Below are positions 6,001-9,000 of a stretch of 29,007 nt of DNA, one piece after another; within the stretch, counting starts at the first letter, position 1, and the number at the start of each line of letters is the position of its first letter. A program made the position numbers. Origin of the DNA: a plasmid; sequence record NZ_CP088219.1; one strand, 5' to 3'.

Positions 6001-9000
6001 ATTATTGATTTTGTAGGATTTTTTTGGTTAATAAGTCTTTTCTTATACTATCAACAATACGGTAATTAGCTTGTCAAAGGATTTTACTCTTTCCAATCAA
6101 TTGTGGATTTGTATCGGTGTAGAAAGTATTTTGTACCAAGCGTCTACCTGCTTTATTTCTAATGAAAAATCAGTTAGTAAATCTTTAATCATTTTTCTCT
6201 TAGAAAACCAATTTGAACGGTTCTGAGAAATATAATATAAAGATAAAAAATTGACATATGATTTATACAGTGCTAAAATTTAAAATGTATATAGGAGAGG
6301 TCTTGCCACAAGTAGACATTGAAAAAATAGAGAGTCCATGCTAAAAGTTGGAATTGAAAAAATGGAGAGGTCTTGCCACAAGTAGACATTGAAAAGCGAC
6401 CAAATATTTGGTCGCTTTATTTTTATACTGTAGGAGAAATTATGAAATTATACTATGTTGATGAAGATTATATTAATGAATTAAGAAATGTAGATGAGAG
6501 AGTATTATTAAATAAATCCACTCGTCCTTATTTAGGAGTTGTATTATCTATTAATGATCTTAATTATTTTGTCCCCTTAAGTTCCCCTAAAGAAAATAAA
6601 AAACTAAATAATCAACTATCAATAAAATTGTTTGAGGTTAATAATATTCAAAATAGATTAGGATATCTATTATTTTTAAATATGATACCTGTTCCTGATA
6701 AATATCTTTCTAAAATAGATATGCAATACATAAAGGAGCAAGATTTAGAATATTATAACTTATTAACTAACCAATTAATTTTTATTAGGCAAGAAAATCA
6801 AAGAATCGTAAATAAAGCCCAAAAAGTATATAAAAATGCTGTGATAAAAAAAGTTTCATTTTTTGAATCAATGTGTGTAGATTATTTAGCATTGGAAAGA
6901 TATGTGAAAGATTTAAAACAGTAAAAAAGATAATTCTGTCAATAATTCCCCTCAACATACTCAGAAGAATTTTAGTGTAAAGTCTTTGTAATTGTCTATC
7001 TTAGTTAATTAGATGTTTACTATTATTTCTATATTAATATATAGCTAAAATTAATAAAATAGAAGTCATTAGCTGAATTACTTATGAATCAAAATAAATT
7101 TTATATACAAAATGTCATTTTTGAATACGCTCTAAATAAACAAAAATAGTCCTCTTATTAAAATAAGAGGACTATTTTTGTTTAAAATTATTCAAGACCA
7201 TTCGCTTTCTAACATACTCATTTGCCATAAATTATAATATTCTCCATTTAATTTTCTAAAGTCTCTTTTTTCTCCTTCTTTTATAAATCCAATCTTTTTG
7301 TAACTTTTAATAGCTGATTTATTAAAGGCAAAAACACCTAATTCAATTCTGTGTAGTCCCAAATCTTCAAAAGCCTTTTTCAATAATTTCTTTATTATTT
7401 TAGGGCCTAATCCTTGGCCACGCATTTGCGGATCACCTACTAAAACTTTACTTAACGTGGCGGAACAATTTTTAAAATCTATATTATTTAAAGCAATATG
7501 ACCTATAATTTTTTTTGAATTATTTTCTTCAATGATAACTTTATAAATTATTTTACTAGAATTTTCTTTATTTGTGTCTTTAATATATTCCTTTAATTGT
7601 TCTTCATCTAGGGGATAATTAAAATCTGTACCTGCCCATTTGACTAAAAGTTCAGGAGAGTTTATCCAGTTTATTAATAAATCAAAATCTTTCTCCTCAA
7701 AATATTCAAACTTAATCAATAAATTACTCCTTAAATAATAGGTTATTAACTATAAAAATTCAGTGAATGTTGCAATATAAACAACCACTACAATTTTTTG
7801 ATACTTTCTTCATCAACTTTCTATCTTAAATTTTCGATTTTTTATAAAGCGTTTTGTATTATCTAAATAACTCTTTACAATTTACTGATTTTTAAGCTTT
7901 TGCTAATAGATTTATGCAACTTTAATATTATAAGTAAATCTATGCACTTCATCATTAAATTTAAATTCTGCCCAAATTTTATACATCCCTTTTTTAGGAA
8001 AATGAGCATAAAAGGTTGTAGAATCAGGTGATTCTGGGTGAACATGAATATAATCAGTTAATTGCTCATCAAATATAATCACATGTCCTAAAGCTCCTAA
8101 ATAAGGTTGGGGAGTTAATTCTGTATTGAAAGTTAAAGGGACATGTTCATCTTCTTTAGCACTTATAGAATTTAAAGTTACATGAACTCCTTTGTTAACT
8201 TTTACCCAATTTTTATCAGAATTTAAAGATGTTGTAGAGGTTATTTTATCTCCAATTTGCAGTTCAATAGGATGAACGGAATACACATGGTTTTTTGGTG
8301 TAACATCAACAAAAGCCTGGTAAGTTCCTGGCTCTAATTGTTGGTTAATTATAAATAAACCTTCATGCTTTTTTTGAGGGTGTAGGTGGTAATATTTCTC
8401 CATGTCATTAGATACTAAAACGAAATGCATTTCTTTTTCATGCATAGTATCTAATAATGGGGCATTATTAAATTCATCTTCTAACGTAATTTCTATATTA
8501 CCATCTCTATATACAACATTTGCTTTAATTTCGGGTTTGTTTGAATGATATTCATGATTATGATTCATATTTTTATCCTCCTTAATTTTTAATAAGGGCA
8601 TATCATTAAACGATATGCCCAACTATTTAAATTATTTAATTACATCGTAACCTTGATCTTCAATAGCTTCTTTAAAGTCGTTGAAAGCTACTTGATTTTC
8701 ATCAAATTCAACTTCCACATTCCCATTCGCCAAGCTTACTTCTGAAGATGTTACACCATCTAATCCATTTAATGCTTTTTCAATTGAATGCTTGCAATGG
8801 TCACAGCTCATACCTTCTACATTAATAACTTCGTTAGTCAATGTTGTCACCTCCTTTCAAGAAATATAAGATTCTTATAATTTCATACGTTTTAGACGTA
8901 AAGCGTTTGTGACAACACTTACAGAACTTAAAGCCATTGCTGCTCCCGCAACCCAAGGTGCTAGCAGACCAATTGCTGCTATAGGGATACCTGCAACATT

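Follow-up and report, generated by a model that had tools for sequence, protein, structure and literature searches.

A probable ToxIN/AbiQ-family toxin-antitoxin locus with a heterotypic RNA antitoxin array on a staphylococcal resistance plasmid

The 29,007-nt stretch of plasmid sequence record NZ_CP088219.1 analysed here (hereafter, the window) contains at positions 6251-6924 a compact locus that we interpret as a toxin-antitoxin system of type III and of the ToxIN/AbiQ family, in which an array of RNA repeats would restrain an RNA-cutting toxin. Given the homology of the protein, the architecture of the locus and the covariation within the RNA, we consider this placement likely, with a probability of roughly 0.88; the family criteria used are those of Blower 2012, Goeders 2016 and Manikandan 2022. 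The toxin itself is already annotated, RefSeq naming the protein a ToxN/AbiQ family toxin. New here are the RNA antitoxin, which is unannotated, a correction of the toxin start codon, and the recognition of the middle repeat as a conserved, compensated pseudoknot.

Organization of the locus and its RNA units

The locus and the hairpin that follows it consist of the following predicted elements (S1 and S2 are the two helices of each RNA unit):

6251-6279, plus strand: promoter of the sigma-A/sigma-70 type, with a -35 element TTGACA (6251-6256), a 17-nt spacer, a -10 element TAAAAT (6274-6279) and a TG extended -10
6289-6323, plus strand: ToxI-like unit R1, pseudoknot core 6293-6317; S1 GG 6294-6295 with CC 6306-6307, S2 GUCU 6300-6303 with AGAC 6314-6317
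6321-6327, plus strand: A-rich linker GAAAAAA between R1 and R2, a predicted ToxN processing site; the second such linker lies at 6356-6362
6324-6358, plus strand: ToxI-like unit R2, the middle unit, of antiQ-like type; S1 UAG 6328-6330 with CUA 6341-6343, S2 UCCA 6335-6338 with UGGA 6349-6352
6359-6393, plus strand: ToxI-like unit R3, with the same sequence as R1 over 6364-6395
6393-6424, plus strand: intrinsic (Rho-independent) terminator or attenuator between the array and toxN, with an 11-bp stem and a 4-nt loop followed by A-UUUUU
6432-6436, plus strand: Shine-Dalgarno sequence AGGAG, 5 nt ahead of the ATG
6442-6924, plus strand: toxN/abiQ-like gene encoding the 160-amino-acid (aa) protein WP_001831392.1, a ToxN-family endoribonuclease toxin by homology
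7133-7188 (7137-7184 in a narrower delimitation), no strand assigned: long near-perfect hairpin AAACAAAAATAGTCCTCTTATT...AATAAGAGGACTATTTTTGTTT between toxN and a convergent GNAT acetyltransferase gene (7192-7719, minus strand)

A preliminary description of this DNA had read 6251-6924 as a complete locus made of a promoter, repeats, a terminator, a ribosome-binding site and an open reading frame, and every one of these parts was recovered in place or nearly so. For comparison, related loci were fetched (handles beginning with L below) whose toxins are 92, 85, 69, 65, 63, 63 and 51% identical to that of the window. The layout of promoter, three 35-nt repeats, hairpin terminator, ribosome-binding site and ATG is present in every related locus with enough upstream sequence.

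The promoter, previously described as a consensus SigA site (TTGACA-17-TAAAAT), matches the consensus at 11 of 12 positions and is the top-scoring promoter-like site in a scan of 5800-7300. The scan yields 18 such sites against 11.1 ± 3.3 expected, a class without enrichment in this AT-rich DNA, and by itself is therefore little proof; the promoter is, moreover, equally placed in L002, L004, L006, L007 and L008. Transcription would start at about 6285-6287, some 7 nt past the -10 element and some 7 nt ahead of the first repeat, and R1 would accordingly carry as its 5' tail the end of the primary transcript (UAUAUA) rather than a cleaved AAAAU tail.

Tandem Repeats Finder delimits 2.9 copies of a 35-nt period at 6294-6395. 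The two outer repeats, reported earlier as identical, indeed agree over 32 nt at this period (R1, 6294-6325; R3, 6364-6395), and no match of this kind arises in 100 shuffles. At its base, the terminator stem overlaps with the A-rich 3' tail of R3 (GAAAA, 6391-6395). That terminator had been presented as a perfect 20-bp hairpin with a T-run; the hairpin and the T-run stand, whereas the 20 bp do not, the structure being a 20-nt palindrome within a perfect palindrome of 26 nt (6393-6418; arms 6393-6405 and 6406-6418) that forms an 11-bp stem. It is the single terminator-like site found in the scanned region, against 0.3 expected. Eight related loci retain the hairpin; among them, 7 of its 11 pairs have changed on both sides, and several are G-U wobbles that are compatible only with RNA of the plus strand.

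The pairing within the units was assessed in an ungapped alignment of 20 units from eight loci, with S1 at register positions 5-7/18-20 and S2 at 12-15/26-29. The two crossing helices form standard pairs in 96.2% of the cells, compared with 73.5% in shuffles, none of 500 of which attains as much, and pairing falls to 32-56% when the partners are slid by one to three columns. Both-sided changes occur at four of the seven S1 and S2 pairs. In S2, 100% of the cells are paired, and three of the four pairs occur in more than one form (UA, GC or CG; UA or CG; AU, UA or CG). Within S1, pair 6-19 is never disrupted: 12 sequences have GC there and 7 have AU. Six unpaired nucleotides of the units are invariant, G9, A10, U16, A23, G24 and U25. 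They match respectively G5, A6, U12, A20, G21 and U22 of ToxI_Ec, from which its turn, A-minor contact and U:U:G triplet are built in the crystal (PMC8860590). Given both the covariation and the correspondence of the invariants to nucleotides that make tertiary contacts in ToxI_Ec, the units are predicted to be H-type pseudoknots of the ToxI type with A-rich single-stranded tails, each with an S1 of 3 bp, an S2 of 4 bp plus a U-U pair, a G-A turn and an AAGU loop. The pseudoknot that the preliminary description had proposed to look for in the 35-nt repeat thus has both helices supported by covariation. In addition, register positions 31-33 hold a UUG whose conservation across the units is at least 90%. 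The score of R1 against the covariance model, 52.7 bits, is high by construction. A minimum-free-energy fold of the whole leader, a method that cannot model pseudoknots, was set aside: it recovers only the terminator, alongside a spurious long-range pairing of R1 with R3 (z = -1.1).

The same geometry extends to the wider family. Tandem repeats with a period of 34-49 nt, mostly in 2.7-3.3 copies, lie upstream in 61 of 80 genome loci of ToxN relatives, and the canonical geometry taken from the literature (3 bp in S1; 3 bp in S2, with a further inner pair that is U-U or standard) fits 45 of 56 consensus units of 33-41 nt, compared with 4.7 ± 2.1 in shuffles (maximum 10). ToxI_Pa, ToxI_Bt, antiQ and the R2 and R3 units of the window all fit it. 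An earlier, badly specified geometry test, which gave 33 of 56 against 16.6 in shuffles, was replaced by this one.

The middle unit, R2, had been described as degenerate, with about 25 of 35 matches, and as perhaps not bound like the others. The divergence is real, R2 being 72% identical to the outer repeat over 32 nt, equivalent to 26 of 35 positions. Of its nine differences from R3, however, eight constitute four compensatory pairs (from R3 to R2: G6-C19 to A-U, G12-C29 to U-A, U13-A28 to C-G and U15-A26 to A-U). R2 is nearly unchanged in L002, L004 and L006 and still recognisable in L007-L009, loci whose toxins are 63-92% identical to that of the window. It is 86% identical to the units of L008, 80% to those of L010 and 77% to lactococcal antiQ (pSRQ900), compared with 71-74% to R1 and R3 of its own array; the outer units bear a clade-specific S2, GUCU/AGAC here and CUCC/GGAG or UCCC/GGGA in relatives. 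Because its differences are compensatory and conserved in divergent loci, R2 is in our reading not degenerate: it is the most conserved, the most antiQ-like and an ancestral-looking unit of the array, and is unlikely to be non-functional. With both helices kept and the unit conserved, the suggestion that it is bound differently finds no support. The compensated middle repeat amounts to a clean natural mutagenesis experiment that backs the pseudoknot model.

Beyond the toxin gene, the long hairpin at about 7133-7188 is probably a bidirectional terminator that ends the toxN operon. The model Plastid-psbA-3 hits this hairpin on both strands, spuriously, at 45.3 bits against a gathering score of 48.4.

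The toxin and its start codon

The 160-aa product matches Pfam family PF13958 (ToxN_toxin) over model positions 1-157 of 159 with 132.3 bits (cutoff 25; expectation value, E, 2.4e-38) and the PADLOC model of AbiQ with E = 2.6e-57. Among solved structures, phmmer retrieves 4ATO (1e-28), 4GLK (3.4e-21), 2XD0 (1.2e-10) and 7D8O (1.3e-9). For the ToxN fold, of which a twisted antiparallel beta core within helices is the criterion, the evidence is the AlphaFold2 model (predicted local distance difference test 86.1; predicted template modelling score 0.83), which Foldseek aligns with template modelling (TM) scores of 0.86 to 4ATO, 0.80 to 4GLK, 0.84 to 2XD0 and 0.82 to 7D8O, compared with 0.54 to CptN and about 0.3 to MazF. 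Membership of the CptIN and TenpIN families was rejected, given NCBIfam scores of 19.2 and 17.8 bits, respectively, against a cutoff of 90, and the TM score to CptN.

The active site of ToxN_Pa comprises Tyr29, Lys33, Thr52, Ser53 and Lys55, and the catalytic residue of AbiQ is Ser51 (PMC5086642). In the alignment to ToxN_Pa, S47, S48, K50 and R28 of the window protein correspond to T52, S53, K55 and K33, and S47 also corresponds to S51 of AbiQ; S47, S48 and K50, and with them the catalytic Ser-Ser-Pro-Lys motif, are invariant in 11 relatives. By its Pfam and PADLOC matches and its predicted fold, the protein clearly belongs to the ToxN/AbiQ endoribonucleases. The strong similarity to AbiQ and ToxN noted earlier holds, with the refinement that the closest solved relative is ToxN of Bacillus thuringiensis and not AbiQ. 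A placement outside the ToxN/AbiQ superfamily, which the preliminary description had named as the outcome that would speak against it, is not what homology searching gives: the protein falls inside.

The longest-frame call for this gene starts at a TTG at 6373, within the third repeat, and yields 183 aa; as the preliminary description had noticed, it misassigns the start by reading through the repeats. Several public records carry such an in-repeat start, including the 183-aa coding sequence of pD4-19, gene calls P0001-P0005 (183-198 aa) and NZ_ON936820.1 19368-19919 (WP_002488419.1, 183 aa), whereas others start at the ATG at 6442, and RefSeq holds both the 160-aa and the 183-aa versions. Because the in-frame stretch upstream of the ATG lacks conservation, its length among relatives lying anywhere between 0 and 50 codons, the 183-198-aa models are best read as artefacts that translate the antitoxin and the terminator, and the 160-aa WP_001831392.1 as the right one; the toxin start should be annotated at ATG 6442.

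The same observations bear on an entirely different interpretation, namely that the repeats act as DNA (iterons or other protein-binding sites) or are the coding sequence of a 183-aa protein that begins at TTG 6373. An open frame does begin at 6373, cross repeat 3 and the terminator and continue into toxN, and some public annotations use it. Apart from the inconstancy of this upstream frame, the Pfam model begins at residue 1 of the 160-aa form, the ribosome-binding site and the ATG are conserved in all related loci, the substitutions in the repeats follow the pattern of paired RNA helices, and the G-U wobbles of the terminator are specific to plus-strand RNA, all of which makes this alternative extremely improbable.

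Spread, plasmid context and possible function

By analogy with characterised relatives, which provide the templates for the mechanism (PMC5086642, PMC8860590), we propose that a single constitutive promoter starts a transcript that would contain exactly three 35-nt units, each folding into an H-type pseudoknot of the ToxI type. Most transcripts would end at the 6393-6424 attenuator, with read-through providing the toxN mRNA, as in ToxIN_Pa and AbiQ, so that antitoxin RNA would be in excess of toxin. ToxN would cut the precursor in the GAAAAAAU linkers, which are compatible with the known motifs AA/AU, A/AAAA and A/AAA (PMC5086642), and would then remain bound to the unit tails, 5' as well as 3', within an RNA-protein ring that is closed, inactive and probably 3:3. 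If transcription stopped or the RNA was degraded, upon phage takeover or plasmid loss, the labile RNA would decay and free ToxN could cleave A-rich cellular and phage RNAs and arrest the cell. The outcome would be abortive infection, post-segregational killing that stabilises the resistance plasmid, or both.

Several points weigh against the assignment to a functional ToxIN/AbiQ system. The parts of the locus, their order and conservation, the RNA pairing, the protein family and the predicted fold are observed at the locus itself; its transcription and processing, the toxicity and its neutralisation, and phage resistance would follow from homology. The equivalent of Tyr29 of ToxN_Pa falls in an alignment gap. 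Rfam, searched at E <= 10, contains no family that matches the locus, the sub-threshold hits to its hairpins being to unrelated models only. The covarying pairs of the units are all Watson-Crick, and the units alone therefore do not fix the strand, which is called from the promoter, the G-U pairs of the terminator and homology. Finally, Pfam and PADLOC searches of the flanking genes reveal no defence island. The sole faint defence-like signal near the locus is a hypothetical 357-aa protein (2222-3295, minus strand) that matches the P-loop/HerA-like and SspH/mads_8 models of PADLOC weakly (best E = 1.5e-7); for the genes at 3767-4966 and 5008-5823, neither Pfam nor PADLOC gives any hit. Since the flanking genes are not recognisable as defence genes, the context does not favour defence over plasmid maintenance.

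The 761-bp locus is present on 38 PLSDB plasmids, always with at least 99% DNA identity (100% among the 30 matches listed), from at least seven species, Staphylococcus epidermidis, S. aureus, S. haemolyticus, S. hominis, S. warneri, S. pasteuri and S. lugdunensis; the next plasmid-borne relatives have less than 41% protein identity. The window is collinear with S. epidermidis plasmids, for example NZ_CP069220.1, in which the coordinates of the locus are identical. It encodes repA, copper/heavy-metal genes, blaZ/blaR1, qacA/B and mobV, which bears out the setting on a staphylococcal resistance plasmid that had been proposed from first inspection.

This distribution also bears on the idea that the locus is an inactive relic, with a defunct toxin or RNA and a decaying middle repeat. 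Damaged plasmid copies do occur, one frameshifted (H40) and one truncated (H41), and toxin-less arrays exist in two metagenomic contigs described below. Yet the reading frame is full length relative to the Pfam model, the catalytic motif is invariant across relatives, the near-identical locus persists on plasmids of several species, and the changes in the middle repeat are compensatory and conserved in divergent loci, so that we consider a relic very improbable.

A more serious alternative retains the molecular mechanism proposed above and confines its role to plasmid addiction through post-segregational killing, with no part in phage defence. The locus is carried by resistance plasmids, at a distance of about 5.5 kb from the repA/rep genes, its immediate neighbours lack defence-family hits, and ToxIN_Bt, the closest solved relative, is reported to promote plasmid retention (PMC4615649). 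On the other hand, AbiQ and ToxIN_Pa are abortive-infection systems (PMC5086642), related loci stand beside a type I restriction-modification specificity subunit (L002) and a SieB gene (L010), a matching ToxI-like unit occurs in a Bacillus phage, and addiction and phage defence are not mutually exclusive. We regard a role in addiction alone as possible, if rather unlikely.

As to these neighbours, the related ToxIN locus in L002 (286-1980) is directly downstream of the specificity subunit gene, and that in L010/L011 (220-1962) is directly downstream of the SieB superinfection-exclusion gene of L010. In L010, the first repeat is swapped for an unrelated sequence, which leaves two canonical units.

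Two toxin-less arrays were found on metagenomic contigs, L116 22-160 (plus strand; ERZ1029884 NODE-169) and L129 2589-2759 (minus strand; ERZ1029858 NODE-185). Their promoter, three units and terminator are 87-91% identical to positions 6251-6426 of the window; in unit 3, positions that are invariant elsewhere (G9/G11 or G24) carry mutations. Each contig spans about 13 kb, and neither encodes a ToxN homologue. The arrays lie in an AT-rich element packed with ORFans. PHROGs recognised in it only an HNH endonuclease, a DNA methyltransferase and one family without known function, the DNA of which matches a plasmid gene annotated as NADAR, and no DNA match of the element to known phages or plasmids was found. 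These arrays could be relics or antitoxin decoys.

A single intergenic ToxI-like unit, TTGGAGAGGTCTTGCCAAGAGTAGACATTAAAAAT, is present in Bacillus phage FADO (OM236516.1 101486-101523; L098 1497-1538). About 32 of its 35 positions agree with R3 of the window, neither helix is broken, and the covariance model gives it 36.7 bits (E = 9e-6). PK-3 (ON881243.1), a relative of FADO, and the Bacillus 'plasmids' NZ_CP076118.1 and NZ_CP106792.1, of about 162-165 kb, each contain one such intergenic unit, which likewise keeps both helices and has no ToxN gene beside it. A consensus promoter lies about 80 nt upstream of the FADO unit, the gene downstream is not ToxN-like and has no Pfam hit, no ToxN gene adjoins it, and no cognate Bacillus ToxIN was found. 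We consider the FADO unit a candidate phage pseudo-ToxI; like the toxin-less arrays, it recalls pseudo-ToxI decoys and might be one.

Elsewhere, exact-pattern scans of IMG/VR with the R1/R3-type and R2-type units gave no matches. A degenerate unit pattern retrieved 50 metagenome loci, six of them real and all six of the staphylococcal clade, and the 44 single-match loci outside this clade, which serve as a negative control, include none with a complementary S2. The close-clade covariance model is too narrow for distant ToxI units, and its matches are limited to antiQ, units from Listeria, the FADO unit, the toxin-less arrays and a small number of others.

One could further speculate that the A-B-A array is held heterotypic by selection, with two sequence-distinct but isostructural pseudoknots, a conserved antiQ-like one in the middle and fast-evolving ones at the flanks. 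We hold this to be doubtful. If it were true, one would expect a heteromeric inhibitory ring, or else units unequal in affinity or turnover, and this inequality could determine the threshold for firing or restrict how far phage-borne ToxI mimics neutralise the toxin; both the FADO unit and the toxin-less arrays would then be decoys of the same arms race.

The staphylococcal type III systems in the literature searched are TenpIN candidates only (PMC3401426, PMC4885055). A plasmidome study of 2023 reported a ToxN/AbiQ toxin on two S. aureus plasmids known as draft contigs, pSauR262 (JAKRCO010000017) and pSauR269-2, with no repeats found nearby (PMC10135026). Our literature search found no paper that describes the repeat array of the window, and the RNA part of ToxIN/AbiQ seems to be unreported in staphylococci. 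The ToxIN/AbiQ family, together with its RNA antitoxin, would be added to the staphylococcal type III systems, for which reviews list TenpIN candidates only. Because the locus is carried by resistance plasmids common to S. epidermidis, S. aureus, S. haemolyticus and others, it may stabilise blaZ/qac/copper plasmids and affect susceptibility to therapeutic phages.

The window contains further tandem repeats that are separate from the locus. Near its end, upstream of repA on the circular plasmid, a 96-nt repeat is present in 2.7 copies with 99% identity (28460-28720), adjacent to 7- and 14-nt repeats of the TGTAACA type (28701-28750); these arrays may be partition- or origin-associated. Within repA (1-936) there are repeats of 23 nt (3.8 copies, 355-442), 15 nt (3.6 copies, 444-497) and 9 nt (2.8 copies, 490-514), a placement that would be compatible with origin-type repeats inside a rep gene.

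Comparison with characterised systems

The TenpIN systems of S. aureus plasmids pSK41, pGO1 and VRSAp (PMC3401426, PMC4885055) resemble the window locus in being type III toxin-antitoxin systems with RNA repeats upstream of the toxin on staphylococcal resistance plasmids. They differ in the toxin family: TenpN has 249-259 aa, and the window protein stays far below the TenpIN cutoff, as given above.

ToxIN_Pa of Pectobacterium atrosepticum pECA1039 (2XD0/2XDB) and ToxIN_Ec (7D8O) share with the window the operon of promoter, repeats, terminator and toxin, the protein fold (TM scores of 0.84 and 0.82) and the pseudoknot scheme, which combines S1, a G-A turn, an S2 that includes a U-U pair and an AAGU loop. 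Their units are 36 nt long and present in 5.5 (Pa) and 4.6 (Ec) copies, in contrast to the three 35-nt units here, the protein identity is 25-31%, and the hosts are Gram-negative.

ToxIN_Bt of B. thuringiensis pAW63 (4ATO) is the closest solved homologue (E = 1e-28, 40% identity, TM score 0.86), is likewise plasmid-borne in Bacillota, and also has about three imperfect repeats. Its middle unit, too, differs in S2 in a compensatory manner (ACUC/GAGU against GCCU/AGGC). Unlike the window array, it uses a 34-nt unit, with units 54-63% identical to those of the window, and ToxN_Bt has a C-terminal extension of about 30 aa.

The AbiQ/antiQ system of Lactococcus lactis pSRQ900 differs from the window locus in its host genus and in its protein, which is only 34% identical to the window toxin, and it is an experimentally tested system, whereas the window locus is read from sequence. 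The repeats of antiQ are near-identical to each other, in contrast to the heterotypic A-B-A array here; compared with the window units, antiQ lacks 1 nt in loop L2 and has 1 nt more in the tail. Nevertheless, the architecture is closely matched, as had been suggested from the 35-nt unit and the copy number of about 2.8: both loci consist of a promoter, about 2.8 copies of 35 nt, a terminator, a ribosome-binding site and the toxin gene, and in both the base of the terminator stem shares the last A-run of the array. The catalytic S51 of AbiQ corresponds to S47 of the window toxin, and the antiQ unit, 77% identical to R2, has the same S2 helix, UCCA/UGGA.

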